A DNA stretch of 64,000 nt from a bacterium (GTDB taxonomy: Bacteria; 4484-113; JAFGCY01). Shown here in pieces: positions 16,944 to 63,717 of the stretch; within the stretch, counting starts at the first letter, position 1; the number at the start of each line of letters is the position of its first letter. Position numbers and translations under genes: made by a program. The stretch is from NCBI GenBank assembly GCA_020440645.1, contig JAGRNR010000014.1, positions 1,294-65,293 of the forward strand. Reading direction: 5' to 3'. The notes beneath the pieces were generated by a model. That model made no database searches and was not told the origin of the DNA. It saw nothing but the letters and a program-made list of their open reading frames with translations.

Positions 16944-17258
16944 CAGGTAATCCCGCCTATCTGACGGGGAGGGATATTATGCCAGAAAAACAGAGGAAAG
17001 GGAACAGATAGCAAACTACAAAGATCAGACCTCAGAAGCCAGACTTCAGATCAGTTTCCGCTGCAGCGAGTCAACTGTCTGAAGTCTGGAGTCTGACACC
17101 TGCTGCAGGCCGCAGGCCGCAGGCAGGTATACTCTTCTCGCGCACAGGGCGCACTCAGTCCGCGAGAAGGGAATGTCCCGCCTGACCAATCTGCCCGAGA
17201 TGCATTGTTACGACACTTCGGGACCGCCATGCGGACAGCGGCAATATCGGAGGTCGTA

Positions 17259-18836
17259 ATGACGATTGAACTACCCGCCGGCGCAAACCTCGAATTCGCG
17301 CGCAAACAAGCCAAGCTGCTGTTGAAACAGCTCAATGACTCGGAAGCCGCCGCCCTGGCCATCGCTGCCGAGTTGCACCCACAGGGCTCAAAACCTGACT
17401 GGCAGCTCAGCGATGCGCAGCTGATCATCGCGCGGCAGTACGGCCATGAATCCTGGCCGAAGCTGAAGGAAGCGATCGAGAACCAGCGCCCGCTCGCCGA
17501 GCAGGCCAAGGCCTTCATCGACAGCATGTTCGGCTGGCAGGATGCGCGCTTCAAACGCATCATCACTGAGCATCCGGCTGTCGCCTCATTCGACCTCGCC
17601 TGCCAGGTCAGCTGTGGCGACCATGCCGCGCTCGCCGAACTGCTCGCCGCAGACCCGGATGCCGCGAAACGCAAATACGCCCCGCTGGACCGCGAACTGA
17701 TCATCTACGCCAGCTACTCCCTGATGCACACTCTCGGCGAGCCCTACCGCTCTGGCCTGCTGCGCTGCGTCGAACTGCTGCTTTCGCATGGTGCGGACCC
17801 CAACGCTGCCTATGACGAGGGCGGCACATGGGCCGGCGCGATGCAGCCCTGCTTGTACGGTGCGACCGGGCATGGCAACTTTCCTGAGCTGGCCCGCCTG
17901 CTGCTGGAGGCCGGGGCCGACCCGAATGACGACGAATGCATGTGGCATGTGCCGCAGTTCATGTACGAGGAGTGCCTCGCGCTGCTGCTGGAGTTCGGTG
18001 GCAACCCGAACCGCAAGAGCGAGCACTGGAACAACACCCCGCTGTACTTCCTGCTCGGGCATCGCACGAATGACAAGGGCTATGACACCGCGATGCGCGG
18101 TGTGAACTGGCTGCTGGAGCATGGCGCGGAACCGAATGTGCCGAGCTATGACTGGCAGGAGAATGCGCTGCAGCTCGCAGTGCGCCTGCACCATCGCCCG
18201 GACGTGGTCGAGTCCCTGCTGAAGCACGGCGCGGACGGGAGCTATAGGCGGGCGGATGGCTGCGACAGCTGGCAACTCGCATTGCGCAGTGGCAACCGGG
18301 ATGCGATCGGCCTGCTGCGAGAACATGGCTTTGCGCATGACGAGGATGAACTGCTGGACAGCTACCTGCTGGCGGTGATGACTGCCGATGCGCAGTCCGC
18401 CGGGGAGATCATCGCCGCCAGTCCGCAGCTGCTGGAACAGCTTGGCAAGCATGGGCCGGACAGCTTCTGCGATGCAGCCGAGCGCGGCCAGCTTGAGGTG
18501 GTCCGGGTGATGCTTGACAACGGCTGGGATGTCGCAATGACCGATGAATGGGGCCGCCAGCCGCTGCACTGTGCCGCGCTGCGTGGCTTCGCGGACGTCG
18601 TCAGGCTGCTGCTGGCTGCCGGTGCCCCGCTGGACCACCATGACAAGCTGTACGACGGCGCACCGATCGGCTGGGCGCTGCACGGCGCGATCGAGATGCC
18701 GGCGGAGGATGGCGACTACCTTTCAGTGGTCGAACAGATCGTGGCCGCCGGCGGGCTGGACTTTGCCAACGACCGCAGCTGGGCCGAACGTGATGTGGCG
18801 AAGGTGCGTGAGAGGTATGGAGGATCTCGGAGCTAG
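17259..18836 (+). CDS. Ankyrin-repeat protein (about 10 ANK repeats)
   Basis: ORF 17205..18836. GGAGGT RBS sits before ATG 17259. Repeated ANK consensus is present (LLSHGADPNA, LLEAGADPND, LLEHGAEPNV, LLKHGADGS, TPLH/ QPLHCAALRGFADVVRLLLAAGAPLD). Confidence 0.8.
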   Translation: MTIELPAGANLEFARKQAKLLLKQLNDSEAAALAIAAELHPQGSKPDWQLSDAQLIIARQYGHESWPKLKEAIENQRPLAEQAKAFIDSMFGWQDARFKRIITEHPAVASFDLACQVSCGDHAALAELLAADPDAAKRKYAPLDRELIIYASYSLMHTLGEPYRSGLLRCVELLLSHGADPNAAYDEGGTWAGAMQPCLYGATGHGNFPELARLLLEAGADPNDDECMWHVPQFMYEECLALLLEFGGNPNRKSEHWNNTPLYFLLGHRTNDKGYDTAMRGVNWLLEHGAEPNVPSYDWQENALQLAVRLHHRPDVVESLLKHGADGSYRRADGCDSWQLALRSGNRDAIGLLREHGFAHDEDELLDSYLLAVMTADAQSAGEIIAASPQLLEQLGKHGPDSFCDAAERGQLEVVRVMLDNGWDVAMTDEWGRQPLHCAALRGFADVVRLLLAAGAPLDHHDKLYDGAPIGWALHGAIEMPAEDGDYLSVVEQIVAAGGLDFANDRSWAERDVAKVRERYGGSRS

Positions 18837-18939
18837 GTTGTCGGGTGTAGCGGATTTGTCGTGCTTCACGCGGAAAAGTAATTCAAGGTGACTCGCAGCG
18901 TCACGCCAACCCTACAACCCAGATCCCAGCTCCTATATC

Positions 18940-19428
18940 CTAGGCAGACAGGTCAGCTCCCGCCATGCTGGCACCCGACATGTCGCAGCCGTCCAGCTGC
19001 GCGCCCTGCAGTTTCGCGTTGTCAAGCACGGCGCTTTTCAGGCTGGCATTGCGCAGGTCGGCTCCGCGCAGGTCGGCTCCGCTGAGCACAGCTCCGCTCA
19101 GGTCCGCATTGCGCAGGTCGGCATTGCGCATATCGCGGCCGCTGAGGCTGGCACCACGCAGGCTGACCCCGCGCAGGTCGCGGCCATACATCTCCTCATG
19201 CATCTGCACCCGCCGGCAGGCCCCGCGCTGGCGCGGCAGGCCTTCGCGGGCGAGGCGCTCGATGCTTTCGCGGGAGATGCGGCGCTCATGGCGCACCACC
19301 TCCATGTCGCGGTACACCAGTTGCCCTTCGCTGCACAGCTGCTGCAGGCGCTGGCGCCGGAGCGGCCGGCCCGTCAGGTGGGCCAGCAGCTCCGTCGCCT
19401 CTGTTGTTGTCAGCCAGTCGCCGTTCAT
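18940..19428 (-). CDS. Pentapeptide-repeat protein (162 aa)
   Basis: C-terminal array of A(D/N)LxG/A(N/D)LS pentapeptides (RGVSLRGASLSGRDMRNADLRNADLSGAVLSGADLRGADLRNASL...). Confidence 0.75.
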   Translation of the reverse strand: MNGDWLTTTEATELLAHLTGRPLRRQRLQQLCSEGQLVYRDMEVVRHERRISRESIERLAREGLPRQRGACRRVQMHEEMYGRDLRGVSLRGASLSGRDMRNADLRNADLSGAVLSGADLRGADLRNASLKSAVLDNAKLQGAQLDGCDMSGASMAGADLSA

Positions 19429-19439
19429 TGCATTCCCGC

Positions 19440-20519: not shown

Positions 20520-20814
20520 GTTTTCCTCGCTTCGCTGCCTGCCCCTGGGGGGCTTCAGGCCTTACGCGTCACTGCTGCCTAACTATACGCCGGGGGATGG
20601 GGGATGGTTTCAGATGAGGATAGAGGATCCCGGAACTAGGGGCTGGCAGAATGGCTTGAAGTGACGGAAGATATGACTGTTTGCCCCGTGCTGTAATGAC
20701 ACATTGATCGGCAAAGCACCACGTCCCCGGTAAGACAAGCTGCTATTCACTGCTTTTGCAACACGTAAAACCTGATTCCCGACGCCTCGCCTGCCACACC
20801 CCACAACCCAGCTC

Positions 20815-21411
20815 CTACATCCCCGACATGTGCCAGATCCAGCCCAGCATCAGCAAGCTGACCGCCGCGATCCAGCTACCCGCCACCCGCACACCGATTC
20901 TCATCCATTCGGCATGCAGGCTGATGACCAACGCCGGCAGCAGGGTTGCCAGCAGGAACACAAGCGTGGCCGCGCCCCAGATCGCCAGCCCGTCCATGCC
21001 GGCCATTGTCAGCGCTGCCCCGTTCAGGTAGCCATGGAAGGCCGCCAGCAGGCAGGCCAGCGCGAGCAGCACCGCATGCGGCGGGCGGCGGTCCAGCAGC
21101 ACCAGCATGGCGACGAGGCCGAAGCTCAGCGTTGTCAGCATCGGGCTGTCCGCACTGCCGCCGGACTGCATCCCTGCCATCCCGGCCAGCAGCCAGTAGG
21201 CCGGCAGCAGCAGCAGCAGGGGCCGCGCAGTTTCCCGTCCTGCCTGGCCAGACAGCAGGCCCAGCGTGACCACGAGCAGGATGTCCGCCGGCGTCTGCAG
21301 CATGTGAACCATCCCGTCGTAGTAGCTGCCAAAGCCCGTGCTCACCAGATGCGCCCAGGCTAAGCCGGGCATCAGGCAGAACAGCATGAACACTGGCAGC
21401 AGGCGCTTCAC
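20815..21411 (-). CDS. HupE/UreJ-like membrane protein (third in the cluster)
   Basis: ORF 20815..21528. A GTG start at 21409-21411 overlaps the TGA of the upstream gene (GTGA coupling). The signal runs through …LAWAH, and there are multi-TM segments with an FHGY motif resembling FHGxAHG. Confidence 0.6.
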   Translation of the reverse strand: MKRLLPVFMLFCLMPGLAWAHLVSTGFGSYYDGMVHMLQTPADILLVVTLGLLSGQAGRETARPLLLLLPAYWLLAGMAGMQSGGSADSPMLTTLSFGLVAMLVLLDRRPPHAVLLALACLLAAFHGYLNGAALTMAGMDGLAIWGAATLVFLLATLLPALVISLHAEWMRIGVRVAGSWIAAVSLLMLGWIWHMSGM

Positions 21412-22013
21412 CCGAGCACGGCCCCCTTCAGGAAGAACAGCCCGCCAAGCAGCACGCAGGCCCCGGCTGCGCGTACCAGCAGTTCGCCGCGCTTCACATC
21501 GTTGAGCATCCCGAGCGCAATGCCGCACATGTGCAGCAGCCCAGTGCTGATCACGAAGCCGATGCTGTACAGCATGCCGTTGCCACCTTCCGGCAGCTCA
21601 GTGCCGTGCGCATGTCCGTGGAACACAGCGAAGACGGCCACCAGCAGCAGCGCCACCCACAGAGGCGGACTGAACTTGCCGAGCACCATGATGCCGAGCA
21701 CCACCGCGCTCAGTGCGATGCCGATCTCGATGCCCGGGATCGGCACGCCGATCAGCCCGAGAAAGCCACCGAAAGCCATCACCAGCGGGAAGGCCACCGG
21801 CAGCAGCCAGATCGCGGGCTTCTTCAGTTGCGCGCCCCACAGGCCGACGGCCACCATCGCAAGGATGTGGTCCCAGCCGCTGACCGGATGGTGCATGCCG
21901 GCCATGAATCCGACAGCCCCGCCCTCTTCCACATGCGCATGTGCCAGAATTGGCAACATGAGCGTCGCCAGGCCGAGCCAGTATGCGACTGGTCTGTACT
22001 GCATTGTGATCAC
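21408..22013 (-). CDS. HupE/UreJ family protein (Ni/Co-related secondary transporter family)
   Basis: 201 aa. Signal ends …LAHAHVEEGG. Conserved GWDHILAMVAVGLW and VFHGHAHGTE are the hallmark HupE/UreJ motifs. ATGA overlap with the upstream gene. Confidence 0.8.
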   Translation of the reverse strand: MITMQYRPVAYWLGLATLMLPILAHAHVEEGGAVGFMAGMHHPVSGWDHILAMVAVGLWGAQLKKPAIWLLPVAFPLVMAFGGFLGLIGVPIPGIEIGIALSAVVLGIMVLGKFSPPLWVALLLVAVFAVFHGHAHGTELPEGGNGMLYSIGFVISTGLLHMCGIALGMLNDVKRGELLVRAAGACVLLGGLFFLKGAVLG

Positions 22014-23955: not shown

Positions 23956-24103
23956 GTCTCCTGCCGGCCCTGACCGGATTGCAGATTATGGCGCATGACC
24001 GGAGGTCCGGCGCAAGCCGGGCGGAGTGTTGGTCTTAGACCAACAAGGCCCTGTAGCTCTAAGAGCTACACTCCGCTACCCCCTACAACCGAGTTCCTAT
24101 GTC

Positions 24104-24565
24104 CTACTTCATTTCCTCAATCATTGAGCGCATCTTCTCCGCGCTGACCCCGCTCGAGCGCCTCACCTCAATCACGCCGTCCGGCTTGCCATCCCCGTCC
24201 ATGTCCTGCCCGGCTGCCATGTCCTCCCCGAAGCCCAGCAGGATGTAGTCCTTCACCTCATAGCCGTCATGCACCGCGATGTAGCAGACGTTGCCAGCGG
24301 CCAGCTCGCCGGCGGTGAAGGCCACCGGATGCATCTCAGTGCGGTCGTATGGATTGATGAGCGCCATGTTCTGCCCGTCCTTCATAAGGTCGGCATTCAG
24401 CGTCTCCGGGTACAGCCCGCCGTTCTGGCGCGCCCAGTCCAGCAGGTTCTGCTCAATGGTTGCAATGTGCGCCTTGAGCTCCATGTCCGCCAGGCTGTCC
24501 GCCGCCGGCTGGTTACAGCCGGCCAGCAGGGCCAGCATTGCCATTGCAATCCAGAAAAGCTTCAT
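24104..24565 (-). CDS. Hypothetical lipoprotein (153 aa)
   Basis: Signal plus lipobox MKLFWIAMAMLALLAGC. Asp/Gly-rich C-terminus (DMDGDGKPDG). No family recognised. Confidence 0.55.
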   Translation of the reverse strand: MKLFWIAMAMLALLAGCNQPAADSLADMELKAHIATIEQNLLDWARQNGGLYPETLNADLMKDGQNMALINPYDRTEMHPVAFTAGELAAGNVCYIAVHDGYEVKDYILLGFGEDMAAGQDMDGDGKPDGVIEVRRSSGVSAEKMRSMIEEMK

Positions 24566-24750
24566 GTCATTCCCCCTTCGCCTGTCACCAGGCCCGGCAG
24601 CCTACCCGCTGCCTGATCCACTCTAGCACCACCTGTGCAGCAGGCCAATCCTGCGCCTCCAGGGGTAGCATTACCCAGCGATGCTAACATTGCAGCGCGC
24701 AACACCTGCCGGCGGACAGGCAACACCAGGCAGGATTGACCAGGAGCAAC

Positions 24751-25461
24751 ATGTCAACTCAGGAACCACAGACCCGCCGCACGGGCGGGGTGAAGCGGGT
24801 ACGCCTCGTGCTCGTGGAGCGCGAGCACCATTACGGTGACGTGCACACTTACCACTTCAGCGTGGACGAGCCGCTGCCATACAACGCAGGGCAGTACGTG
24901 CATGTCGCCCTCGAGCTGGCCGACCCTGATGCCAAGCGCGTGCGTGAGCTGTCTTTCTCTTCCGCACCGCATGAGGAGCATGTCAGCTTCACCATCGACG
25001 GCCGCTCGCGCTCGCCCTTCCAGTTGCATATGCTGGCAATGCAGCCCGGGGACAGCCTGCAGCTGTTCAAGTCCAAGATGCATATGCTGTGGCCGGTGAT
25101 CGAGGAATGCGTAGTGTTCATCGCAGGCGGCGTCGGCGTCACGCCCTTCCGTTCAATGGCGCTGGACAAAGAGCACAGCGGGGTGCGCATGCGCATGGAA
25201 CTGATCCACGCCGCCGGCAGCGAGCACCTGTTCGCCGATGCGCTCAGGCCGCTGATGGATGAGTACATCGCCACCGACCGCGCGGGCCTGGCGGGCGAGA
25301 TCACGGCCTGCATCGAGCGCCACCCGGATGCGCGCTACTACATCGCCGGCTCACCGGGCTTCGTGGAAGGCGTGATGCAGCAGCTTGAGGCGGGCGGCAT
25401 CAGCCAAAAGAAGATCGAAACGGACGAGTTCAAGGGCTATGTGGAAGAATGGCAGGAGTAG
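24751..25461 (+). CDS. FAD/NAD(P)-binding oxidoreductase (ferredoxin-NADP reductase-like fold)
   Basis: ORF 24736..25461. AGGAG RBS sits before ATG 24751. The FAD-binding R-x-(Y/F)S-type block is RELSFSS and the NAD-binding block is FIAGGVGVTPFRSM. Confidence 0.7.
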   Translation: MSTQEPQTRRTGGVKRVRLVLVEREHHYGDVHTYHFSVDEPLPYNAGQYVHVALELADPDAKRVRELSFSSAPHEEHVSFTIDGRSRSPFQLHMLAMQPGDSLQLFKSKMHMLWPVIEECVVFIAGGVGVTPFRSMALDKEHSGVRMRMELIHAAGSEHLFADALRPLMDEYIATDRAGLAGEITACIERHPDARYYIAGSPGFVEGVMQQLEAGGISQKKIETDEFKGYVEEWQE

Positions 25462-25574: not shown

Positions 25575-25651
<77 letters not shown>

Positions 25652-26058: not shown

Positions 26059-28335
26059 TTACAGGCCGATCGGCGGAGCCGGATCGGTCGTGGTGCCGCC
26101 GTCATCGTCCACCGGGAAGCCGGGTTCGATGAAGATCGGGCCACCGCCACCGCCGCTGCCGCCGGGGGCGCCGATGGGCCACATCCAGAAGTCCATCTCC
26201 TTGTCGTACATGTCCGGCCAGATGCGGATGAAGATGTCCTCGTAGCCACCCTTCTGGATCAGCAGGTTGTACTCAACCTCAGCCAGCGTGGTGCTGTAGC
26301 GGCCGTTGGAATCGCTCAGCACGTGGCTGAAGTAGCCACCGCCGAGCTGCTCATCAGTCGGGGTGAACACCATGTCAGCGCCGGCGATCGTCGAGTCGTC
26401 AAAGCCGTCATAGACCGTGCCGCTCTTGTTGCCGGTGTTGACGTCCGGGGCCTCATAGGTCTCCAGCACGAGATTCACGTTGCTGGCCTGGCCGTCACGG
26501 ATCTCGACCATGATGCCCTGGGTCAGGTGGCCGTTGCGGTAACCGCTGACCAGCCACTCGCCGGTGGGCACGTTGTCAATCACGAACTCGCCGTTGGAGT
26601 TGGTATAGGTGAAGGGGTCGACGTTTGGCTGCGTGGCGTTCACCAGCGCATCCGGGATCGGGTTGCCATCCTCATCGGTGACACGTCCCTCGACGCTGCC
26701 CACCGGGACCTCCGGCAGGGTGATGGTCACCTCGTTGGCGGCCGCATCCTCCTCGACAGCCACGTCGGCGCTGTAGGAGATGTGGCGGTAGGCGCTGGCG
26801 AACACGTAGTACGGTCCGGCCGGCACGTCCTCGAAGCTGAACTCGCCGTTGTCATCCGCCCAGCCGCTGTAGTAACCGATGAAGTCCGGGGCCACCATCG
26901 AGCTTGAGCGTCCGTTGCGCTGCTCCCAGAGGAAGCGCTGCAGCATGTTGTTGTCAAACTCGCTGCTGTTCTGGCTGTTGCCGTCGCTGTTGGTGCTGCC
27001 CTCGGCGAAGTCCGCCGCGGGGGCCATGAAGCCGTCGTCACTGCCGCCGGTGCTGAAGTCCTCACCGCGGGTCTGCGGCGGGGCCGGTGCACCGAACTCA
27101 TTGAAGATCTCCACGCCGTCCTCGAACATCATGTCGAGGTCCACCGCGCCGGGCACGGCGATACCGCCGCCGAAGCCGCCGCCGAACACGTACTCGACGT
27201 AGGCACCCTTGATCGGGTTGCCATCGCCGTCAACCACCACACCGCTGATGTCGGTGTAGACGATCGGCTGGATCTCAATCTCGAGGTCCAGGTCGCTCGT
27301 GCGGTTGTAGATGTCCTCTGACAGGCTGGCGTTCAGGTAGCCGTCCTTGTAGACGCTGATCCAGGCGCTGTAGCCAGCCACGCCGTCGGGAAACTCGAAG
27401 TTGCCGTCGGCATCGGTGGTCACTTCCTGGTACTGCGGCTCGTAGCGCCAGTAATCCTCATACGGGGCGGAGGTCATCGCCTCACGGCCGTCGCTGCCGC
27501 CGCCGCCGAAGCCGGGCTCGCTCTGGCCGCTGTCCACCACGCCGGTGTCCACGTCATCCCACTTGATGTCGTCCTCGAAGGGCATCGGCATCGGCTCGGG
27601 GATTCCGAAATAACCGGTATCGACCATCATGCTGACGGTGGCATCCGCCACGCCGGCACCGGTCTTGCTGTCCACCACGCGGCCCGTGACGGTGATGCCC
27701 TCGCCGCTGCCGACCTGGCCTTTGCGGGTCAGCTCGATGTTGCGTACGCTGGTGTCACCCTCGGCGATGCGGACCATCGCCATGCCGGGGTAGTAATCTT
27801 CCGTGTTGGCCACGATGTTCCAGGTGCCGGCAGCGACGTTGGAGAAGCTGTAGACACCACCGCTGCTGTGCGTCGTCTGCACGCCGCCGGCCTCGGAGAA
27901 GATGGTCACTTCCACGCCATTGAGGCCCGCACCGGACTTGTCGTCGGTGACGGTACCGCCAAGGCTGCCCGTACCCTCATTCACGGTCGGGTCAAAGCGG
28001 ATCACCAGGTTCTGGTTGTCCAGCGGGACCACGCTGCGGCTGCCGATAACGACGCCGTTGGTGCCGAGCGAAATCTCGTTCTCCGCGTTCACGCCGCGCG
28101 GGAACTGGCCGCGCTGCAGGGTGAAGTTACCGTTCGCATCAGTGCTGATGCCGGTATCCACGCCCTCGACGCGCACCTGCATGTTGCTCAGCGGTGTGCC
28201 GTTGTTTCCGTAGGCGACTGCGGTCATGCGCTCGAAGCTGTCCGGCGGCGTTGCCGGGCCTCCTCCGCCTCCGCAGGATGAAAGTAGCGCGGCAATTGCG
28301 GCCAGCGCCACCCATACGATTTTCACTGTCTTCAT
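26059..28335 (-). CDS. Secreted lipoprotein with multiple CarboxypepD_reg/Cna-B-like beta-sandwich domains, Gly-rich ends
   Basis: 758 aa. GGGAGG RBS. Lipobox LLSSCGGGGG. Recurrent G-x-V-x-D-x-x-G-x-P/A…TDANGNFTL / TDADGNFEF / SNGEFVI / DSNGRYS motifs are typical of the carboxypeptidase-regulatory-like domain. Confidence 0.7.
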   Translation of the reverse strand: MKTVKIVWVALAAIAALLSSCGGGGGPATPPDSFERMTAVAYGNNGTPLSNMQVRVEGVDTGISTDANGNFTLQRGQFPRGVNAENEISLGTNGVVIGSRSVVPLDNQNLVIRFDPTVNEGTGSLGGTVTDDKSGAGLNGVEVTIFSEAGGVQTTHSSGGVYSFSNVAAGTWNIVANTEDYYPGMAMVRIAEGDTSVRNIELTRKGQVGSGEGITVTGRVVDSKTGAGVADATVSMMVDTGYFGIPEPMPMPFEDDIKWDDVDTGVVDSGQSEPGFGGGGSDGREAMTSAPYEDYWRYEPQYQEVTTDADGNFEFPDGVAGYSAWISVYKDGYLNASLSEDIYNRTSDLDLEIEIQPIVYTDISGVVVDGDGNPIKGAYVEYVFGGGFGGGIAVPGAVDLDMMFEDGVEIFNEFGAPAPPQTRGEDFSTGGSDDGFMAPAADFAEGSTNSDGNSQNSSEFDNNMLQRFLWEQRNGRSSSMVAPDFIGYYSGWADDNGEFSFEDVPAGPYYVFASAYRHISYSADVAVEEDAAANEVTITLPEVPVGSVEGRVTDEDGNPIPDALVNATQPNVDPFTYTNSNGEFVIDNVPTGEWLVSGYRNGHLTQGIMVEIRDGQASNVNLVLETYEAPDVNTGNKSGTVYDGFDDSTIAGADMVFTPTDEQLGGGYFSHVLSDSNGRYSTTLAEVEYNLLIQKGGYEDIFIRIWPDMYDKEMDFWMWPIGAPGGSGGGGGPIFIEPGFPVDDDGGTTTDPAPPIGL

Positions 28336-33927: not shown

Positions 33928-34039
33928 TGTCTTGTCCTGCCGTTCGCAGCGGCAGGAAGATTATATAAGGTGCGGTGGAGCTACCCGCTTCAGCGGTAGG
34001 AGGCCAGGCTGTTAGCCTGGCGGCGGGATGGGGGATGCC

Positions 34040-34136
34040 GAGCAATGAAGCATGAGTCCTGAGCAATGAGCCAATCCTGACTGAGCTAACTTCGATGCAA
34101 CATGGACTCATTGCTCAATCTTCATTGCTCATTGCT
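34040..34136. repeat. Family B hairpin (GAGCAATGA)n between the transketolase-C gene and the inserted hydrolase gene
   Basis: GAGCAATGAAGCATGAGTCCTGAGCAATGAGCC … GGACTCATTGCTCAATCTTCATTGCTCATTGCT. Confidence 0.7.
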
Positions 34137-34137
34137 T

Positions 34138-35130
34138 TCAGTCCTTCAGCCGTGACTCAAGCCAGGCGTAGGCATGCTCCCGCATCTCGGGAGTGAACAC
34201 ATGTCCGCCTTCGTAGATCTTCAGTTCCACATCCTGCGCAGGGTAACTGGCCCTGATGTAATCAGCGAGCGCTTGTGCACCAAAGCTGTACTTGTCCTGC
34301 GTCGTTGCCGAGATCAGCGTAGAGCAATTGTCAAACAGGCCGACCACATCCCCGATATCACCCCAGCTGGCAATCCCTGGAATGGCAAACTCCATCTGGA
34401 TACCAATGTCCTTCTCAAGTGATGCCGCATAGGAAACACAGCGGCAGTTGGACACCGTTGCCTTGATGCGATTGTCAAATGCCGGATACCAGAGCGCCAT
34501 CTGCCCGCCATAGGAATGGCCGATGAAACCGATTCTGCCAGCATCAACTTCAGGAAGCGTGCTTAAGTAATCAATAGCCGCAGAAATATCGTGAACCACC
34601 TTTGCATTCAATGAGGATCCCTGAACCAGCCGGGCGGTGAACTCCCTGTACGCTGTGCCGCCTGTATTGCTGGTGTCATTGCGCTCTTCAAAACCAATCG
34701 CATCCGGCGCAATGACAACATATCCCCGCTCGGCAAGCTCCTTTGCATAGCACTGATCCGGGTCCCCTGCCAGGCCGACCACCTCACTCTTGCCAAGCTC
34801 AAAATTGCCGGCATGCTGGTGATGGGCGAATACTGCTGGCAGCCTTCCTTCAAGCTTCGGCAGCAGCAGATAGGTAGGAATCCGTTCGCCATCTTCCGAA
34901 GAGTATTCAACTTTCCGCTCTATATATGAACCCTTGTCTTCCTCAGCCAGGACAACTGGCTCGAGTGCTGCCTTGCCAGGGAATTCGCCGAGGAGCTTCA
35001 GGAGTTCTTGCTTCTTCATGGCCTGATTGTAGCCCAGCCGCTCAGACCCGTCCCGTACTGGATGTCCGTCGGCGATTGAGGATCTCGGATCTTGGTTGTT
35101 GGGAGTAGCAGATAGTGGTTCGATCTCCAT
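34138..35130 (-). CDS. Alpha/beta hydrolase (dienelactone-hydrolase-like)
   Basis: 330 aa (the start may be the internal MKKQELLKLL). Nucleophile elbow is GHSYGG. HHQHAGNFELGKSE follows the DLH-like pattern. Lies between the split transketolase genes. Confidence 0.6.
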   Translation of the reverse strand: MEIEPLSATPNNQDPRSSIADGHPVRDGSERLGYNQAMKKQELLKLLGEFPGKAALEPVVLAEEDKGSYIERKVEYSSEDGERIPTYLLLPKLEGRLPAVFAHHQHAGNFELGKSEVVGLAGDPDQCYAKELAERGYVVIAPDAIGFEERNDTSNTGGTAYREFTARLVQGSSLNAKVVHDISAAIDYLSTLPEVDAGRIGFIGHSYGGQMALWYPAFDNRIKATVSNCRCVSYAASLEKDIGIQMEFAIPGIASWGDIGDVVGLFDNCSTLISATTQDKYSFGAQALADYIRASYPAQDVELKIYEGGHVFTPEMREHAYAWLESRLKD

Positions 35131-35168
35131 CCTATTCTGCTACACCCCAGGTCCCAGCTCCTATATCC

Positions 35169-36116
35169 TCACAGGCCGTATTGCCAGAAGGTCACCACAT
35201 TCCCCGCCGGGTCAGCCACGCTGAACCACTGCAGGTCTGCAGGCTCGCCCTGCAGCTCCTCCGGCTCAGCTCCGCTGGCAACGAGCCGTGCATGCTCGGC
35301 GGCGATGTCGAGGCATTCGAAGCACAGGCGCAGGGGTGCCGGATCACTGCCCTCCGGGTTGCCACCGCCCCACCAGCCGGCCCAGTCCATCAGGCCGACG
35401 AAGCGCCCCTCATCTGACAGCTTCAGGGCCTTGTAGACGCTGCCATGTTCCTGCACCACCCTGAATGCAAGGCGCTGCGTGTACCACTCCGTCGCCTCAT
35501 CAATGTTGCCAACGAACACCAGCGCTTCGCCCATGCCGTAGCGGCTGGATGCCGGAGCCTGTGCCGCATGCGCCTCCACGGCCTGCGTGGCAGCCACGTC
35601 ACTGCTGGCATCCTGCCAGATGATCAGTGGCTCGCCGTACTTATGCCTGATGCCGATGGTCTGCATCGACTCATCGCCCGTGATCTCCGTGCAGTCGTTG
35701 CCAAGTGCGATCAGCCGCGCGCGGTCCGTGGCCAGGTCCATGCTCTGGAAGCTCAGGTTGGCAGCCGGTGTCGGCCCGCCGGGTTCGAATCCCTCGGCCC
35801 ACTGTGCAGCGACGAGTGACATCTGGTAGGCATTGTCACAGCTGATGGATGCGTACTGGTCGCCGAATTCGAACATCACGGTCCAGCCCAGCCTGTCACG
35901 GTAAAAGTCCCGGCAGGCGGTCCAGTCCTCGGCGTAGCAAACCACCTCAGCGACCTGCAGGCGGTGGGCATCATTGCTCTTCTGTGCATCCATGGAAGCC
36001 TCCTGGGCGAAAGCGCATAGTGTAAATGACAACAGATAGCTGGCAGCGAAGGCCGTAAGGTATATGCAGGTCAGTCTATTCACAGCGGACTCCTGAATGC
36101 TCGATTGTTCCCCCAA
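35169..36116 (-). CDS. Secreted tandem VOC-family (glyoxalase/bleomycin-resistance/dioxygenase fold) protein
   Basis: 315 aa with signal peptide. Two repeats of the beta-alpha-beta-beta-beta VOC pattern (…CRDFYRDRLGWTVMFEFGDQYASIS… and …ATEWYTQRLAFRVVQEHGSVYKALKLSDE…). Confidence 0.55.
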   Translation of the reverse strand: MGEQSSIQESAVNRLTCIYLTAFAASYLLSFTLCAFAQEASMDAQKSNDAHRLQVAEVVCYAEDWTACRDFYRDRLGWTVMFEFGDQYASISCDNAYQMSLVAAQWAEGFEPGGPTPAANLSFQSMDLATDRARLIALGNDCTEITGDESMQTIGIRHKYGEPLIIWQDASSDVAATQAVEAHAAQAPASSRYGMGEALVFVGNIDEATEWYTQRLAFRVVQEHGSVYKALKLSDEGRFVGLMDWAGWWGGGNPEGSDPAPLRLCFECLDIAAEHARLVASGAEPEELQGEPADLQWFSVADPAGNVVTFWQYGL

Positions 36117-40668: not shown

Positions 40669-40760
40669 AACAAATCCAGTCAGCAGTAGCTGTCGCAATG
40701 ATTGGATGCGAAGCAGTATTCTAGCCTTATACGCAAATCCCGTGGGAATGAAAGAGTATA

Positions 40761-40859
40761 GCTGAAAGCAGATAGCAGGGATCAGACTCGGCACTTCGAT
40801 CCTTCTGCGGCAGTTCACCTGTCCGAGTCTGCTCCCTGCTCGCTGCTTTCTGTTCTCTG
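40761..40859. repeat. Imperfect long hairpin built from (A)GCAGA oligomer repeats (family A)
   Basis: Left arm is GCTGAAAGCAGATAGCAGGGATCAGACTCGGC. Right arm is GTCCGAGTCTGCTCCCTGCTCGCTGCTTTCTGTTCTCTG, its reverse complement. The loop is about 30 nt. Confidence 0.7.
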
Positions 40860-42632
40860 TTACGGTGCATACACGGCCCAGACCAGCTTGGTCTGGGTCC
40901 GGACTTCCTCGCCATTGCCGGCTGACAGGCTGAACAGCTGCGCAAGGGCCGGTTGGCCATCAAGCAGCATGAAGCTGGTCAGGCCCGCCGGATAATCCGG
41001 CAGCACGCCATCGATCTGCCAGTCCGCAGGGTCATTGCCAGGCATTGCGCTGCTCCAGTGGCTCAGCACCATTAGCTGGCCATCGAGCGCAGTGGATGCC
41101 TGCGGACTGCCATGCAGGAAGTGCAGCTCAGCCCCGCTGCCCGCCAGGCCCAGCAGCGGGTCCTGCCCCAGCCCGAGCATGTCGTAACTGCTGTATTTCC
41201 AGGACTCGAACAGCTGCGGATCGCCATCGAGGAATTCAGCCGTCCAGAAGCGCAGGCTGCCATCCTGCGCCGGATGCCCGTCCACGCAAGCCAGCAGCGG
41301 ATGCCCGTTCAGTTCAGCGGTGTACATCGCCGAGTCCCGCCCTTCGCCGAGCGTCAGGTGGACCCAGTCGTCCGAGGTACTCGGGAATGACGAGATGCTG
41401 CTGGCAACGCGGAACTCCCGCAGGTCGTTGCCGAGATCAACGCAGTAGCCGAAGGCCGGGCCGCCATTGATGCTGATCGGCGGCGTCGTCCCGGATGTGC
41501 CGGGGATGTCCGGCAGGTCCAGGTAGACGTCGCACACTGCCCAGGACAGGTCATCGGGACTTGATTTGAATGCATACAGCAGGGTGTGGAAGTTGTCACT
41601 GGGAGAGCTGCTGACCTGCATTGTGATTGCCGGCCCGCTGTCCAGCCGGCCCAGCCGGGGGTTGACAAGCCTGGGTGCGCCCATGAAAGCCTCGTTGCTG
41701 AAGGTTTCGTGCGGGTCACCGGCATAGTGCCAGACGAGTGTGGGCACTGCTGGGTTGCCAAAGGGCACGACATTGATGATACCGAAGCCACCGTCGAAGT
41801 CCGCCATGTCCAGGCCCTCCGCACCGAAGAACTGCCCCTCAAGCGAAAGCAGCTCCCAGTCCGGCAGGGCGGCGCCGTTGGCAGTGTTGCTGATTGCCAG
41901 CCGCACGCTTTCAGCCCCGGCGGCATCCCGTGTGGCAAACACGATCGCCGGCCGGCCGCCTATGATGCGCGCCTGCAGCGCCAGTGCGCCGTCAAAGGCG
42001 CTGCCGACATCACTTGCCGATTCCAGCTCCACGAAGCGCCAGCCGCTGGCGGGCCGGGTTGCCAGCTCGAAGTGGTCAAGCACCGGCTGTCCGCCACCCG
42101 TCGCCACGATGAAGGCCAGCAGCACATTCCCTGCGGGAGTTGTATAGCTTGCGCTGTCCGGCCATTCCAGCGCATCCTGCGGATTATCCGCAGCGCGCCA
42201 TTCCCAGCGATTGTCAGCCGGAAGGCCGATGCCAATAAAGCAGGACCCGGCCGCCGGTGTTATGCCCCAGTCCATCACCAGCTCAAGCGGTCCGCTGTCA
42301 GCCAGCGGCACGCGGTACACGGCCCACGCGAAATGCTGCGGAGCTGCTTCGCCGGAAGCTGGCGGCAGGAATCGGATGCCCTCGCCGTCCGTTGCCAGGT
42401 TGCCCTGTGGCAGCTCCATGCCCAGCCGCGCCCCCGCGATGAAGCCCAGGCTGTCGGATGCCACGCGCTCGATCAGCACGCCGGGGGCCGGGAGGTCGGC
42501 CGGTGTACCCGGAGCGCTGGGAAGATCCGTTGGCAGCGATGCTGACTGCGCGCTCACGCGGCTGCAGGAACAGTTCACTGCACAGGCCAGCCAGCCTGCC
42601 AGCAGCAGGCACGAAAGGGAAAACGGACGCAT
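40860..42632 (-). CDS. Hypothetical secreted protein (~590 aa) located between the two dockerin-propeller paralogs
   Basis: ORF 40860..42692. GAGGA RBS sits before ATG at 42632 (MRPFSLSCLLLAGWLACAVNC signal). No motif recognised. Pro/Gly/Ala-rich, predicted beta-rich. Confidence 0.5.
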   Translation of the reverse strand: MRPFSLSCLLLAGWLACAVNCSCSRVSAQSASLPTDLPSAPGTPADLPAPGVLIERVASDSLGFIAGARLGMELPQGNLATDGEGIRFLPPASGEAAPQHFAWAVYRVPLADSGPLELVMDWGITPAAGSCFIGIGLPADNRWEWRAADNPQDALEWPDSASYTTPAGNVLLAFIVATGGGQPVLDHFELATRPASGWRFVELESASDVGSAFDGALALQARIIGGRPAIVFATRDAAGAESVRLAISNTANGAALPDWELLSLEGQFFGAEGLDMADFDGGFGIINVVPFGNPAVPTLVWHYAGDPHETFSNEAFMGAPRLVNPRLGRLDSGPAITMQVSSSPSDNFHTLLYAFKSSPDDLSWAVCDVYLDLPDIPGTSGTTPPISINGGPAFGYCVDLGNDLREFRVASSISSFPSTSDDWVHLTLGEGRDSAMYTAELNGHPLLACVDGHPAQDGSLRFWTAEFLDGDPQLFESWKYSSYDMLGLGQDPLLGLAGSGAELHFLHGSPQASTALDGQLMVLSHWSSAMPGNDPADWQIDGVLPDYPAGLTSFMLLDGQPALAQLFSLSAGNGEEVRTQTKLVWAVYAP

Positions 42633-54439: not shown

Positions 54440-54545
54440 GTAGCAGAAAGCAGAGAGCAGGGAGCAGACTCGACGTGCGAACAGCGTGGTCTGCTTTCTG
54501 CTTTCTGCTCTCTGCTTTCTGCTCTCTGCCCCCTGCTCCCAGCAA
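54440..54545. repeat. Family A hairpin (AGCAGAAAGCAGAGAGCAGGGAGCAGACTCG … GTCTGCTTTCTGCTTTCTGCTCTCTGC) directly after the paralog-2 stop
   Basis: Arms of tandem GCAGA/TCTGC pentamer-hexamers, complementary in several registers. Begins 1 nt after TAG 54437-54439. Confidence 0.7.
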
Positions 54546-54633
54546 CCTGCAACCTGATCCCTGTATACTCAACACAGGGAACTGCAGTAGATGCAGCGGC
54601 TGGCAGGAGGCCATGCCCCCGTCGGAGTTCTGC

Positions 54634-58089: not shown

Positions 58090-59151
58090 ATGAGCAACAT
58101 CCCCGCACTTGACAACTACCGCCTGCTGGGCAACAGCGGCCTGGCCGTTTCCCCGCTCTGCCTCGGCACGATGACCTTCGGCACCGAATGGGGCTTCGGC
58201 GGCGACCGCGAGAATTCCCGCAAGCTGTTCGAGCTCTACACCGGGGCCGGTGGCAACTTCCTCGACACCGCGATCAACTACAACAAGGGCACCAGCGAGG
58301 AGTACCTCGGCGAGTTCGTCAAGGGCAGCCGCGAACGCTACGTGATCGCCACCAAGTTCACCTTCGGCACCCGCGAAGGCGACCCCAACAGCGGTGGCAA
58401 CCACAGGAAGAACATCATCCAGAGCGTGGACGAGAGCCTGAAACGCCTCGGCCTGGAATACATCGACCTCTACTGGCTGCATGTCTGGGAGTACCGCACG
58501 CCGGTCGAGGAGCTGATGCGCGCGATTGACGACCTCGTGCGCATGGGCAAGATCCTCTACTTCGGCTTCAGCGACACCCCGGCCTGGGTGGTCTCGCGTG
58601 CCAATGCCGTCGCCGAACTGCGCGGCTGGACACCGGCCGTGGCCGTGCAGATGGAGCACAGCCTGATCGAACGCACCTACGAAGCCGAGATACTGACGAT
58701 GGCCCGCCACCTGAACATCGCCGTCACACCCTGGAGCCCGCTCGGGGCCGGCGTGCTGACAGGCAAGTACCTTGGCAACGAAGCAGGTGAAGGCGAAGGT
58801 ACCCGCAGTGGTGCCGTCAACCGTAGCGGCAAGCTCAATGATCGCAATACCGCCATTGTGCAGGCCGTGGTGGACATGGCGCAGCAGTGCGGCAGGTCAC
58901 CGGCGCAGGTGGCGCTCAACTGGCTGCTGTGCCAGCCGGGTGTGACAGCTCCGATCATCGGCGCACGCACACCGGAGCAGCTGGCTGACAACCTCGGAGC
59001 CTGCGGCTGGCGCCTGGACGACGAGCAGCTGGCGAAACTGAACGAAGTCAGCAACGTCGACCGGCCCTTCCCGCACAGCTTCATCCACAACCCGCGCGTG
59101 CAGGCCGCAATCAGCGCCCAGACGAATGTGGAGAGCCGGCTGCCTGAATAG
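58090..59151 (+). CDS. Aldo/keto reductase family oxidoreductase
   Basis: 353 aa. LGNSGLAVSPLCLGTMTFG…GGNFLDTAINYNKGTSEEYLGEF…RERYVIATKF…IDLYWLHVWEY is the classic AKR signature. Confidence 0.85.
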   Translation: MSNIPALDNYRLLGNSGLAVSPLCLGTMTFGTEWGFGGDRENSRKLFELYTGAGGNFLDTAINYNKGTSEEYLGEFVKGSRERYVIATKFTFGTREGDPNSGGNHRKNIIQSVDESLKRLGLEYIDLYWLHVWEYRTPVEELMRAIDDLVRMGKILYFGFSDTPAWVVSRANAVAELRGWTPAVAVQMEHSLIERTYEAEILTMARHLNIAVTPWSPLGAGVLTGKYLGNEAGEGEGTRSGAVNRSGKLNDRNTAIVQAVVDMAQQCGRSPAQVALNWLLCQPGVTAPIIGARTPEQLADNLGACGWRLDDEQLAKLNEVSNVDRPFPHSFIHNPRVQAAISAQTNVESRLPE

Positions 59152-59305
59152 TGGTCAGTGGTCAGTTGTCAGTGGTCAGGAGCTGTTGGCAGAATGAGAA
59201 ACAGAATCAGCAGAATACAGGTGTCGAATCCTCGGACCTCCTCCTGTTTGTCATTCTGATTCTGCAATCTGCTTCTTCCTGACCACAGACCACTGACTAC
59301 TGATT
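59151..59305. repeat. Composite palindromic element between convergent genes
   Basis: Order is (GTGGTCA)x4 heptamers, then a CAGAAT-repeat hairpin (GCAGAATGAGAAACAGAATCAGCAGAATACAGG … CCTGTTTGTCATTCTGATTCTGCAATCTGC), then inverted (TGACCAC)-like heptamers. The whole 155 nt is self-complementary. Confidence 0.65.
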
Positions 59306-59972
59306 ACTTCCTTCTTATGAAACACAGTCCGTCGAAGTTCTTGCGGCCGACGGTCTGGATCACCGTGGCCTCCAGCCTGTCATCCTCCGCCGCCAGCCTG
59401 AGCGCGGCGCGGGTGCCCGCCACCGAGGGGTCCTCATCGCTGCCGGTCGCCACCTGTCCGCCGCGCACCACGTTGTCAATCACGATCAGCGCCCCGCTGC
59501 GGCTGTGCTCGGTGGCCCATTTCAGGTAGTTGACATTGTTTACCTTGTCAGCATCGATGAAGGCCATGTCGAAGGGCTCACAGCCCTGTGCCGCCAGCTG
59601 CTCCAGTGAATCCACGGCTGCTCCTCTGATCAGCTGCACCCTGTCCGCCAGTCCGGCACGCTCGAAGTTGGCCTGCGCCACATCGGCATGTTTGTCGTCA
59701 ATTTCAAGGGTGACCAACCTGCCGTCCGTAGGCAGCGCGCGTGCCAGGTGGATCCCACTGTAACCGGCCAGGGTGCCGACCTCTAGGATGCGCCGTGCGC
59801 CGATCGCCCCGGCCAGCACCTGCATCAGCCGCGCCTGCAGCGGCGAGAGGCTGATCTGTGGCAGCCCGGCCTCGTCGGCACTGCGCTGCACGGCCTCCAG
59901 CACGGGGTCGGCGGGGGCCATCAGGGCCTCCATGAAGTCTGTGGATTCGCTCCAGAGATGTGTGTCTGACAT
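59304..59972 (-). CDS. Class I SAM-dependent O-methyltransferase (caffeoyl-CoA OMT / family 3 type)
   Basis: 222 aa. SAM motif I is ILEVGTLAGYSGIHLA. Metal-binding DADK is in MAFIDADKVNNVNYL. Confidence 0.8.
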   Translation of the reverse strand: MSDTHLWSESTDFMEALMAPADPVLEAVQRSADEAGLPQISLSPLQARLMQVLAGAIGARRILEVGTLAGYSGIHLARALPTDGRLVTLEIDDKHADVAQANFERAGLADRVQLIRGAAVDSLEQLAAQGCEPFDMAFIDADKVNNVNYLKWATEHSRSGALIVIDNVVRGGQVATGSDEDPSVAGTRAALRLAAEDDRLEATVIQTVGRKNFDGLCFIRRK

Positions 59973-62868: not shown

Positions 62869-63717
62869 ATGCCCCTTCGTTACAATCTGTACATGGACAG
62901 TACGGGGGAAAGGGACTATAAGGACATCGCGCAGGACTGGGCAGGCCTGCGCAGGCGGCCGCTGCTGTGGGGCTGGATCCTGCAGGGCAGCGGCCTGCTT
63001 TCATCGACGCTGGTTATGTACCTCCTCAGCCTCGCATACAAGCATGCCGGTGCCAACAAGGAACTTGTCAGCCGGATCTCAAGCTTCCACATGGAATTCA
63101 ATGTGGTGCTGTGGTACCTGCTCAATGGCCTGGTGATCTGGCTGGCACTGGACCGCATCCGCTACTTCAGCAACGTCATTGAACCTGGCAACCCAGGCGG
63201 CAGCCTGCTGCAACGCTACCGCACGGAATTCAATTCCGCCATCCACCTGATTGCCCTGTTCATCCTGCCTGCCAGCGTGCTGATGGGCCTGGTCTTCCTG
63301 CCGGTCGGCATCCGCGAGAGCGTGGCCTGGATGGGCATCGGCAACACCATCGGGAGCTACCTGCTGAGCATTGCCATTACGCTGGCCGGCTTCGTACTGA
63401 TGGCAGTGGTGATCGTCGGCCTGTCCGTGCTGGCCAGCCGGCTGGCCCTGATCCAGCAGGCATCCATCGGAGTGCTGGCAATGCTGCTGGAAAGCAGGCT
63501 GGAGGGCTTCCTGTCAACCAAGGCAAAGGACCTGATGGCAATCAGCCAGGGCGAACCAACCCCCGTCGGTTATTCCCTGCCCGATATGGGATATCTCTAC
63601 CTGTCCAGTGTCGTGAGGCTGCTCGTGGCGATCATCGTGATCGGCTGGCTGTGCTGGCTGCTTGGCAGGCGGGAGGCCGGAACCGCGGTCTGGCAGCCGC
63701 GAACAGTGCGAGGATGA
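62869..63717 (+). CDS. Hypothetical polytopic membrane protein
   Basis: ORF 62791..63717. The N-terminal 26 codons read through the (CTCATTGCT)n repeat, so the start is more likely ATG 62869 (MPLRYNLYMDSTGERDY) or 62893. About 6 predicted TM helices. Confidence 0.45.
   Translation: MPLRYNLYMDSTGERDYKDIAQDWAGLRRRPLLWGWILQGSGLLSSTLVMYLLSLAYKHAGANKELVSRISSFHMEFNVVLWYLLNGLVIWLALDRIRYFSNVIEPGNPGGSLLQRYRTEFNSAIHLIALFILPASVLMGLVFLPVGIRESVAWMGIGNTIGSYLLSIAITLAGFVLMAVVIVGLSVLASRLALIQQASIGVLAMLLESRLEGFLSTKAKDLMAISQGEPTPVGYSLPDMGYLYLSSVVRLLVAIIVIGWLCWLLGRREAGTAVWQPRTVRG

Follow-up and report, generated by a model that had tools for sequence, protein, structure and literature searches.

Why would one and the same short sequence lie against the stop codons of several genes? 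This question is raised by a 64,000-nucleotide (nt) stretch of DNA from an uncultured bacterium of the UBP7 lineage (hereafter the window), in which four minus-strand gene ends are touched or overlapped by a motif of about 30 nt. A preliminary description of this DNA had regarded the motif as a conserved 30-nt element at a fixed distance from the stop and had proposed that it functions at the RNA level, as a 3′ stabilizer, as a Shine-Dalgarno (SD) or re-initiation signal, or as a small RNA (sRNA) seed. We found that the motif is not an autonomous 30-nt signal, but a four-unit array of heptamers, GGNNNTN, and represents one flavour of a class of hairpins with a 7-nt period that occurs across the lineage. 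The members of this class follow a common plan, in which a purine-rich (NNNN-YRG)n arm runs from the stop codon, usually in the register of TAG, and is followed by a loop of about 20-60 nt and a complementary arm.

Four gene ends in the window share one motif

Direct reading of all four sites confirmed that a ~30-nt element is present at the stops of the four minus-strand genes. Two of the copies are near-identical (18910-18939 and 35137-35168; sites 1 and 4), while near-identity does not extend to the diverged copies at 20791-20822 (site 2) and 24073-24103 (site 3). At site 1, the plus strand reads CTACAACCCAGATCCCAGCTCCTATATCC up to position 18939, and the pentapeptide gene (18940..19428, minus strand) has its TAG stop in the adjoining CTA (18940-18942). 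Correspondingly, CTACACCCCAGGTCCCAGCTCCTATATCC on the plus strand extends up to 35168 at site 4, where the adjoining TCA (35169-35171) is the TGA stop of the VOC gene. The sequence CTACAACCGAGTTCCTATGTCC at site 3 runs up to 24103 and is directly followed by the TAG stop of a gene of 153 aa, and at site 2, CCACAACCCAGCTCCTACATCC (20801-20822) encloses the TAG stop (20815-20817) of the third HupE-like gene. Gene identities were checked against Pfam, and both the gene calls on record for the source contig and a codon-model map of the window place the gene ends at the same positions.

The likeness among the copies is not due to chance. A 22-nt core with up to three mismatches was matched twice in the window, compared to 0.00 matches expected from 100 shuffles, and repeat grouping of the window placed all four sites into a single family (D19; identities of 100, 93, 80 and 73%). 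Conservation extends to related genomes, whose loci are given L numbers here where they have to be told apart: a motif profile recovered non-seed copies in L005, L007 and L008 (E = 1e-5 to 5e-3). At chance pattern matches in two unrelated genomes the profile scored weakly and without significance (E = 0.13 and 1.3).

The motif is a heptamer array and the 5′ arm of a hairpin

On the sense strand, immediately 3′ of the stop, the motif consists of four heterogeneous 7-nt units of the form GGNNNTN. The preliminary description had missed this periodicity as well as the two partner arms (18820-18852 and 35078-35111). In 13 copies, drawn from five genomes, the units are colinear; the first two G residues are present in 52/52 units and the T at position six in 51/52, and the slot consensus is GGAYATA GGAGCTG GGTTGTN GGGKGTA. 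Self-identity at a lag of 7 nt (lag-7 identity) after the stop is 0.46-0.57 and thus at or above the 99th percentile of coding windows. The program Tandem Repeats Finder (TRF) does not call this flavour tandem, the likeness among its units being below 70%.

The motif at sites 1 and 4 forms the 5′ arm of an inverted repeat that is long and imperfect and has the stop codon paired in the base of its stem. The 5′ arm of site 1 (18910..18942, minus strand) reads TAG GATATAG GAGCTGG GATCTGG GTTGTAG GG, so that the TAG stop is the first triplet of the array. It is followed by a hairpin interior of about 57 nt (18853..18909, minus strand), which has a small stem of its own (GTGAC/GTCAC). The partner arm (18820..18852), read on the plus strand as GAGGATCTC GGAGCTA GGTTGTC GGGTGTA GCG, overlaps the final codons of the convergent ankyrin gene (17259..18836, plus strand) and provides its TAG stop (18834-18836). 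The predicted fold of the sense RNA has a free energy of -51.2 kcal/mol (z = -3.7), and 0/200 shuffles folded as well. At site 4, the 5′ arm (35137..35171, minus strand; TGA GGATATA GGAGCTG GGACCTG GGGTGTA GC) is separated by a loop (35112..35136, minus strand), which contains a spurious ATG at 35128-35130, from a 3′ arm (35078..35111, minus strand) that is C-rich in the sense of the VOC gene and represents the older part of the element. The sense RNA is predicted to fold with -41.5 kcal/mol (z = -4.5; again 0/200 shuffles as good), and in this fold the VOC TGA stop is part of the stem, as UGAGGAU pairs with AUCCUCA.

The two diverged copies are less complete. Site 3 carries a single arm (24073..24106, minus strand; TAG GACATAG GAACTCG GTTGTAG GGGGTAG CGG) that starts at an ancestral TAG and is adjoined by a 57-nt two-hairpin module (24020..24078, minus strand) closed by GGCGGAGTG/CACTCCGCC. 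The two small hairpins of this module, TAGCTC..GAGCTA and TTGGTC..GACCAA, recur in two L008 copies (6228-6295 and 6588-6655), which are in opposite orientation relative to the G-rich array, and L003 (4130-4164) keeps half of the module with one hairpin of the two. At site 2, where the arm (20791..20822, minus strand) reads GGATGTA GGAGCTG GGTTGTG GGGTGTG GCAG, an inverted-repeat partner is only weakly indicated: a possible degenerate arm, CTGCCAGCCCCTAGTTCCGGGATCCTCTATCCTC in minus sense, lies about 140 nt downstream (20616..20649, minus strand; profile E = 4.4). The minimum free energy (MFE) of the site 2 region is -79.4 kcal/mol for the sense and -61.1 kcal/mol for the antisense RNA, and at sites 1, 2 and 4 alike the sense RNA folds better than the antisense RNA. 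The 30-nt arm has no internal hairpin and pairs only with its distant partner arm.

Site 2 also lies in a variable neighbourhood. The window has three successive HupE/UreJ-like genes (20611-22157), and the stretch bearing two of them together with the site 2 element is absent from the genome CP060262.1 (L003 2026-2186). The boundary of homology with CP060262.1 falls at the candidate partner arm of site 2.

Periodic arrays of several flavours begin at stop codons

The GGNNNTN family is not the only one of its kind. Over spans of 28 nt, a lag-7 self-identity of at least 18/28 occurs at 325 positions of the window, compared to 190 at lag 14 and at most 50 at any other lag. TRF called more than 20 period-7 arrays, and the window holds about 20 such stretches, whose flavours comprise AGCAGNN, TGGTCAG, NNCAGAC, AGCAATG and CTGCAAC besides the GGNNNTN family. 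Usually, two complementary arms of the same flavour enclose a loop of 20 to 60 nt. Folds of the other flavours reached z-scores of -3.6 to -6.3, with 0/200 shuffles as good.

These arrays are concentrated behind stop codons. In 13/40 genes, two of which look like false positives, the lag-7 identity of the first 35 nt after the stop exceeded the 99th percentile of coding windows, while the same criterion picked 2/41 regions upstream of starts (Fisher P = 0.0015) and 31/1540 coding windows (Fisher P = 6e-12). The array-bearing genes span unrelated functional classes. The stop-adjacent arm is always the purine-rich strand, with a YRG triplet every 7 nt: summed over 18 such arms, the ratio of CAG to CTG is 45:10, that of TAG to CTA 12:1 and that of TGG to CCA 20:2. 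In ten of the 18 arms, YRG slot and stop codon are in phase (binomial P = 5e-5), and since nine of these ten have TAG stops, the stop is effectively the first triplet of the array. The periodicity ends at the open reading frames (ORFs), as lag-7 identity within their last 35 nt is 0.24 against a background of 0.29. We therefore rejected as a general explanation that arrays reach into ORFs and the stop is merely the first in-frame one, although this does hold for site 2 and the ankyrin gene. TAG stops are not significantly enriched among the array-bearing genes of the window (8/13 vs 12/27, P = 0.5). The 40 complete genes of the window use TAG 20 times, TGA 15 times and TAA five times. In DNA of 63% G+C, TGA is normally the dominant stop, and the share of TAG here seems unusually high.

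Several of the hairpins illustrate this arrangement. An (AGCAGNN)4 hairpin at 54440..54569 (plus strand) directly follows a TAG stop and continues through a loop into a (TCTGCTT)n arm (MFE -63 kcal/mol, z = -6.3). Between two convergent genes (59152..59303), (TGGTCAG)4 is placed at the stop of 58090..59151 (plus strand) and its complement at the stop of 59304..59972 (minus strand). An AGCAG-type hairpin (40751..40859, minus strand), for which L010 has an ortholog, starts at the stop of 40860..42632 (minus strand), and an AGCAATG-type hairpin (34031..34137, minus strand) starts at that of the hydrolase gene (34138..35019, minus strand). A further heptamer hairpin (25462-25574) is located between the stop of 24808..25461 (plus strand) and the 3′ end of a minus-strand tRNA-Val(gac) gene; it is predicted to fold with -52.2 kcal/mol in tRNA sense and -34.4 kcal/mol in mRNA sense. 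As an exception to the rule, a single AGCAATG array at 62825-62858 is positioned immediately upstream of the start of 62869..63717 (plus strand), and the orthologous position in L005 (217-257) is taken by the GGNNNTN family instead. The window also contains three tandem paralogous genes without a Pfam match (47836-57903), encoding 1083, 1068 and 1049 aa. An AGCAG-type hairpin ends both the second and the third of them, which indicates that the hairpin was duplicated together with the gene.

Arrays are exchanged at orthologous gene ends

In the gene that was tested, the window is identical to a metagenome scaffold of the European Nucleotide Archive (ENA; WANG18-1, 232 kb). A scan with a 25-nt pattern, for which one genome per species was used and which, being strict, misses diverged copies, identified the motif in three UBP7-labelled or related metagenome-assembled genomes (MAGs), namely CP060262.1 ('Planctomycetales bacterium HK-STAS-UBP7_A-1'), UBP7 HKST-UBA03 and AC1.30. 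The complete 4.1-Mb CP060262.1 has one match and the two other MAGs have two each. The same scan also returned two chance matches in unrelated genomes, and the metagenome collection of the Joint Genome Institute (JGI) gave 0 matches to the pattern. The lag-7 excess was likewise seen at the loci of the related MAGs and was absent from the two genomes with chance matches. Arrays are dense in the lineage of the window, in L003 and in L005, and sparse in L011.

The placement of the copies in these relatives only partly supports the fixed spacing that had been proposed. All four copies in the window are at a stop or overlap it, but this applies to only about half of the independent GGNNNTN copies in the relatives, which are found at a stop with the G-rich strand in sense orientation. 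The other half, approximately, either read C-rich in the direction of the upstream gene or form clusters away from stops. L005 possesses a stop-abutting convergent pair with about 12 units per arm, and at the end of the methyltransferase gene the arms have about four units in the window and about 12 in L005. In L007, an unrelated gene ends in a TAG at which a GGNNNTN array starts, and a second arm lies 25 nt past the stop of the convergent gene.

The arrays are partly conserved and partly replaced. Species whose proteins share only 76% identity have retained the order of the four GGNNNTN units. Sequence identity amounts to 96% at site 1 (window and L003) and to 99% across the site 4 element (window and L004), where the flanking coding sequence reaches only 87%. 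At the site 3 ortholog in L003, a different array (GGAACAG/AAGGCAA) directly follows the same ancestral TAG, and L011 and L012 have no array there. The C-rich 3′ arm behind the VOC gene is common to the window, L004, L010 and L012. What is found next to the VOC stop varies, from the G-rich arm in the window and L004 to (GGCAGAA)6 in L010, (TGGTCAG)5 in L012 and nothing in L011. The stops at sites 1 and 3 are ancestral. The VOC protein of the window ends three residues early (...WQYGL* instead of ...WQYGASGQ*), which suggests that the arrival of the 5′ arm remodelled the gene end. In addition, the 5′ arms of sites 1 and 4 are 93% alike, while each is complementary to its own partner at only about 70 to 75%, and this argues for copying between loci. 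Comparison of the window to L003 and to L010-L012 revealed no clean empty site or target-site duplication; what distinguishes the sites is replacement rather than simple insertion.

The gene order around site 4 has a peculiarity of its own. Two genes, one N-terminal and one pyrimidine-binding/C-terminal (32923-33927 and 36553-37641), make up the transketolase; in the window the VOC and hydrolase genes lie between them, and L010, L011 and L012 have the same split and order.

Other small hairpins and repeats

The window also contains small hairpin modules of another kind. These modules, often in tandem series, consist of GGAGG(T), a perfect stem of 5-7 bp with a loop of 3-4 nt (GCAA, GTAA or TTTA) and (G)CAAYG; the stem sequence differs from module to module, and the modules tend to follow stop codons. 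They are located at 14977-15165, 24001-24025, 33999-34025, 36533-36553, 59988-60014 and 63719-63860 in the window, and in the relatives at L010 8856-9700, L012 9430-9695 and L007 5287-5400. GGAG[GC] together with such a hairpin occurs 24 times in the window, compared to about 8.6 times in block shuffles. A repeat of about 31 nt, TTTAACCACAGAGGGCACAGRGAGCACAGAG, is dispersed and conserved, has a 7-nt period (CACAG) and is common to genomes with only ~76% protein identity. It is present at 36395-36428 of the window (reverse strand), in six copies within L010 8856-9700, and at about 4985-5015 in L011 and 9525-9555 in L012.

A 3′-UTR stem-loop as the favoured function

What might such hairpins do at gene ends? 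On balance, we favour a reading in which stop-anchored heptamer hairpins act in cis as stem-loops of the 3′ untranslated region (3′-UTR) and their arrays arise by 7-nt slippage and copying, both parts of this joint proposal being inferred. The position of the arrays, their strand asymmetry and the stability of the sense strand together make the cis-acting 3′-UTR stem-loop the best reading, and in 9/12 co-directional cases the sense RNA is predicted to be more stable than the antisense RNA. The transcribed structure would define or protect the 3′ end of the mRNA, either as a terminator that does without a U tract or as a barrier to 3′-5′ exonucleases after termination further downstream, and between convergent genes one hairpin could serve both transcripts. 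The 7-nt units would arise and turn over through slippage and copying and spread until they meet the constraint of coding sequence; we propose that this accounts both for the zero-nt spacing to the stop and for the change of flavour at orthologous sites. Of the RNA-level roles suggested earlier, that of a 3′ stabilizer fits the anatomy, with a 5′ arm that runs from the stop into a stem-loop and a better sense fold at sites 1, 2 and 4, while those of a re-initiation signal and an sRNA seed were not borne out (see below).

Stem-loops mark transcript 3′ ends of both Rho-independent and Rho-dependent termination across bacteria (PMC13613805), and in Xanthomonas transcripts start or stop at heptamer repeats more often than in controls (PMC4692102). 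A classical intrinsic, i.e. Rho-independent, terminator was rejected for the elements described here, as the stem-loop is present and the U tract is missing. No T run follows the stem-loops of sites 1 and 4, and a consensus scan of 17001-37000 for U-tract terminators gave seven, compared to 9.5 expected, none of them at these gene ends. The combined scan of the same region for terminator and promoter consensus sequences likewise showed no enrichment and nothing at these gene ends. One clear U-tract terminator follows the gene 26059..28227.

A number of observations weigh against a functional stem-loop. The antisense RNA folds better at 40740-40862 and 63718-63930, arm complementarity is imperfect (about 65 to 80%), and site 3 has no complementary heptamer arm. 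Arrays also occur in divergent start-to-start regions (17003-17132, 62825-62858 and L005 217-257). Compensatory changes were seen neither between paralogs nor between orthologous elements of the window, L003 and L004, where there are too few changes. Several of the gene ends concerned have no array in L011 and L012, so that the arrays are dispensable in these genomes. The AGCAATG hairpin has kept its place upstream of the transketolase gene in L010, even though a gene has been inserted between it and the hydrolase stop. Finally, hairpin function alone leaves the 7-nt period without explanation.

Alternative explanations

By the strongest alternative, the arrays are neutral or selfish heptameric simple sequence repeats (SSRs). 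Slippage expansion would be tolerated only in 3′ intergenic space, the hairpins would be a by-product, e.g. of inverted duplication by template switching, and the position at stops would reflect purifying selection elsewhere, on coding sequence and promoters. An excess of bacterial heptamer SSRs has been attributed to polymerase slippage (PMC4692102), and the variation of flavour and unit number at orthologous stops (site 3 and the ends of the VOC and methyltransferase genes), the lack of arrays at the same gene ends in L011 and the missing compensatory changes are all in line with such an origin. However, most arrays are complementary inverted pairs of the same flavour with the low fold z-scores given above, they are strongly asymmetric with respect to the strand of the upstream gene, they start exactly 0 nt from the stop and in its register, and the site 4 element is better conserved than the neighbouring coding sequence. 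As the GGNNNTN units keep their order across species and are not called by TRF, this flavour does not behave like a freely slipping SSR. As a full account we hold this possibility to be unlikely, yet neutral slippage bounded by selection on coding sequence is a serious rival that probably holds in part.

A small non-autonomous mobile element, similar to REPs (repetitive extragenic palindromes) and REPINs (paired REPs) or to miniature inverted-repeat transposable elements (MITEs), which is copied by a transposase encoded elsewhere and prefers the position 3′ of TAG, would explain that the 5′ arms of sites 1 and 4 resemble each other more closely than they match their own partners. It would also suit site 4, where the 3′ arm is old and shared with L010 and L012, the 5′ arm is new and its arrival coincides with the remodelled VOC C-terminus, as well as sites 1 and 3, where the elements begin exactly after ancestral TAG stops. 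The arms behave like the inverted terminal repeats of a MITE (AGGATMTMGGA... / ...TCCGAGATCCT), with no duplication flanking sites 1 and 4, and GTAGGAGC within the motif presumably resembles the heads of Pseudomonas REPs. Yet the unit is not palindromic, which REPs must be (PMC3116915). Neither a target-site duplication nor a clean empty site was found, a Pfam scan of the proteins from the 41 gene calls detected no transposase or RAYT (REP-associated tyrosine transposase) domain, and copy numbers are very low (one in CP060262.1 and two in each of two MAGs). Many unrelated flavours share one architecture, which points to a generic process rather than to one element family. We thus consider this explanation improbable.

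Much the same doubt applies to a G-quadruplex (G4) of the G-rich strand, formed in DNA or RNA, as the active structure in place of the hairpin, as proposed for GGGAATC in Xanthomonas and GGGGA(C/T)T in Nostoc. Four units per arm with conserved G1, G2 and T6 are reminiscent of the four-unit preference and the conserved positions 1-4 and 6 of the Xanthomonas repeats, and in both cases the G-rich strand is the sense strand directly after the stop (PMC4692102). While 4/4 window copies fit a two-tetrad pattern, 0/4 contain four runs of at least three G residues (one to three runs each), so that there is no canonical three-tetrad G4. Moreover, the complementary arm on the same transcript favours a hairpin, and most of the other flavours (AGCAGAA, TGGTCAG, AGCAATG and NNCAGAC) are without any G tracts, which makes a G4 unlikely as the principle common to all.

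A more far-reaching possibility, to which we give little credence, is that the arrays constitute a genome-wide cis code, (YRG-N4)n counted from the stop codon, that is read by a lineage-specific factor and sets termination, read-through or decay at about one third of the gene ends of the UBP7 lineage. Such a factor could be an oligomeric protein that binds RNA in the manner of HutP or TRAP, or else a copying enzyme directed to the 3′ side of TAG. If this holds, the heptamer repeats of Xanthomonas and cyanobacteria might have the same explanation.

The protein variant in particular, in which the (YRG-N4)n arrays are binding sites of an oligomeric RNA-binding protein that competes with the hairpin and thereby controls termination or mRNA fate at many gene ends, appears very unlikely to us. 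Analogs exist in HutP, which binds (NAG-N4)3, and TRAP, which binds (G/U)AG repeats. Most stop-adjacent arms indeed show the sequence pattern of such sites, a sense-strand YRG at a strict 7-nt period from the stop with four spacer positions that vary by flavour, and we take period and triplet to match HutP sites. For the heptamer repeats of Nostoc, a protein partner that has not been identified was suggested as well (bioRxiv 10.1101/2022.06.06.494920). No candidate protein was identified here, the genomes not having been searched for one. Furthermore, the AGCAATG flavour and the GTGAAGC flavour of L005 do not fit YRG, the GGNNNTN family is also found with the C-rich strand in sense, and the YRG pattern could simply stem from descent from TAG-containing units.

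That the motif is an SD or re-initiation signal of the next gene, or an sRNA target or seed, can be set aside almost entirely: the AGGAG that the preliminary description had placed 8 nt upstream of a start at the VOC copy is present, but the ATG concerned (35128-35130) is spurious and lies within the hairpin loop, the hydrolase orthologs of L010 and L004 start at the equivalent of 35019 (MKKQELLKLLG), with a stop in the upstream frame of L010, the codon model likewise selects 35019 as the true start, the next gene at site 1 is convergent, the next starts at sites 2 and 3 are 271 nt and 117 nt away, no Rfam family matches the motif, and nothing supports a seed.

Relation to known repeat systems

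Among the repeat systems described so far, the family presented here is closest to the heptamer repeats of Xanthomonas and Nostoc, in a new lineage. In Xanthomonas these are GGGAATC or heterogeneous (GGGANTN)n, and in Nostoc PCC 7120 GGGGA(C/T)T (Rehm et al. 2015, PMC4692102). Positions 1-4 and 6 are conserved and four units preferred, each genome has 70 to 75 convergent inverted pairs, and the repeats lie on average 28 nt from the 5′ neighbouring ORF, and are enriched, on the coding strand, in the 50 nt next to the stop, stop overlap included; they vary between related species and have no accepted function and no known link to mobile elements or a gene class (PMC4692102). The arrays of the window share with them heterogeneous 7-nt units that begin with G and have T at position six, the number of four units, the stop-proximal sense position (4/4 copies at 0 nt or overlapping the stop), convergent inverted pairs able to form stem-loops (sites 1 and 4) and variation in length and sequence at the same intergenic site (site 3 and the VOC end). 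The features of the published class are thus present except for the capacity to form G4, on which grounds we place the family with these repeats. In contrast to them, the G tracts are mostly GG rather than GGG and do not add up to four GGG runs, so that a canonical G4 is not possible. Moreover, four distinct units occur in fixed order and behave as a conserved 30-nt sequence instead of a simple repeat, and alongside this sequence there are several flavours that share the architecture but are not G-rich. An exact register with the stop is not described in PMC4692102.

Heterocystous cyanobacteria, such as Calothrix PCC 7601, possess heptamer repeats known as short tandemly repeated repetitive (STRR) sequences (cited in PMC4692102). 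Like their hosts, the bacterium studied here has several intergenic heptamer families in one genome, although phylum and GC content differ. Mazel et al. reportedly listed CCCCAGT, TTGGTCA and CAACAGT as STRR units in 1990, and we take three flavours of the window (CCCAGNT, TGGTCAG/CTGACCA and CTGCAAC/CAGCAAC) to resemble these. To our knowledge, stop adjacency and hairpin pairing are not defining features of STRRs.

REPs, REPINs and bacterial interspersed mosaic elements (BIMEs) are also short extragenic repeats often located just after stops, whose inverted pairs form long hairpins and for which there is evidence of copying between loci; REP/BIME elements have been proposed to act as 3′ stabilizers of mRNA and as terminators (PMC3116915, PMC2817692, PMC8266576). 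However, with a non-palindromic unit, a very low copy number compared to tens to hundreds per genome, and no transposase in the window, identity with a REP/RAYT system was rejected, and 7-nt periodicity is foreign to REPs. The hairpins at Rho-dependent 3′ ends (PMC13613805) are, like the folds predicted here, stable, GC-rich stem-loops with clade-specific properties, directly downstream of the ORF and without a U tract. Neither a construction from 7-nt repeats nor a stop codon within the stem is known for them. The 'I-shaped' terminators are stem-loops without a U tract as well. The heptameric TAACTGA direct repeats of Beggiatoaceae, Cyanobacteria and Bacteroidetes (MacGregor 2015, PMC4679880) likewise form abundant intergenic arrays with a suspected post-transcriptional role and, in their case, a suspected protein partner, but they are placed just upstream of starts, consist of one perfect direct unit and are almost never inverted. 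At the gathering threshold, Rfam recognized only three tRNAs in the whole window.

Significance

For annotation, these elements call for caution, as ORFs or starts predicted inside them are spurious, the 330-aa reading of the hydrolase gene being an example. Beyond this, stop-adjacent heptamer repeats have been catalogued for years in Xanthomonas and cyanobacteria without an accepted function. Here, four-unit arrays, conserved G1, G2 and T6, inverted pairs and the sense-strand position at the stop recur, and two features sharpen the question, namely that the arrays have their exact starting point at the stop and keep its register, and that many flavours adopt one architecture. As several unrelated flavours, most of them unable to form a G4, build the same hairpin, an explanation based on hairpin and periodicity is favoured over one based on G4. 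The elements are thus an ordinary-looking but mechanistically unexplained class of repeats, and the occurrence of the same architecture in an unrelated, uncultured lineage argues for a general mechanism rather than a quirk of two groups.

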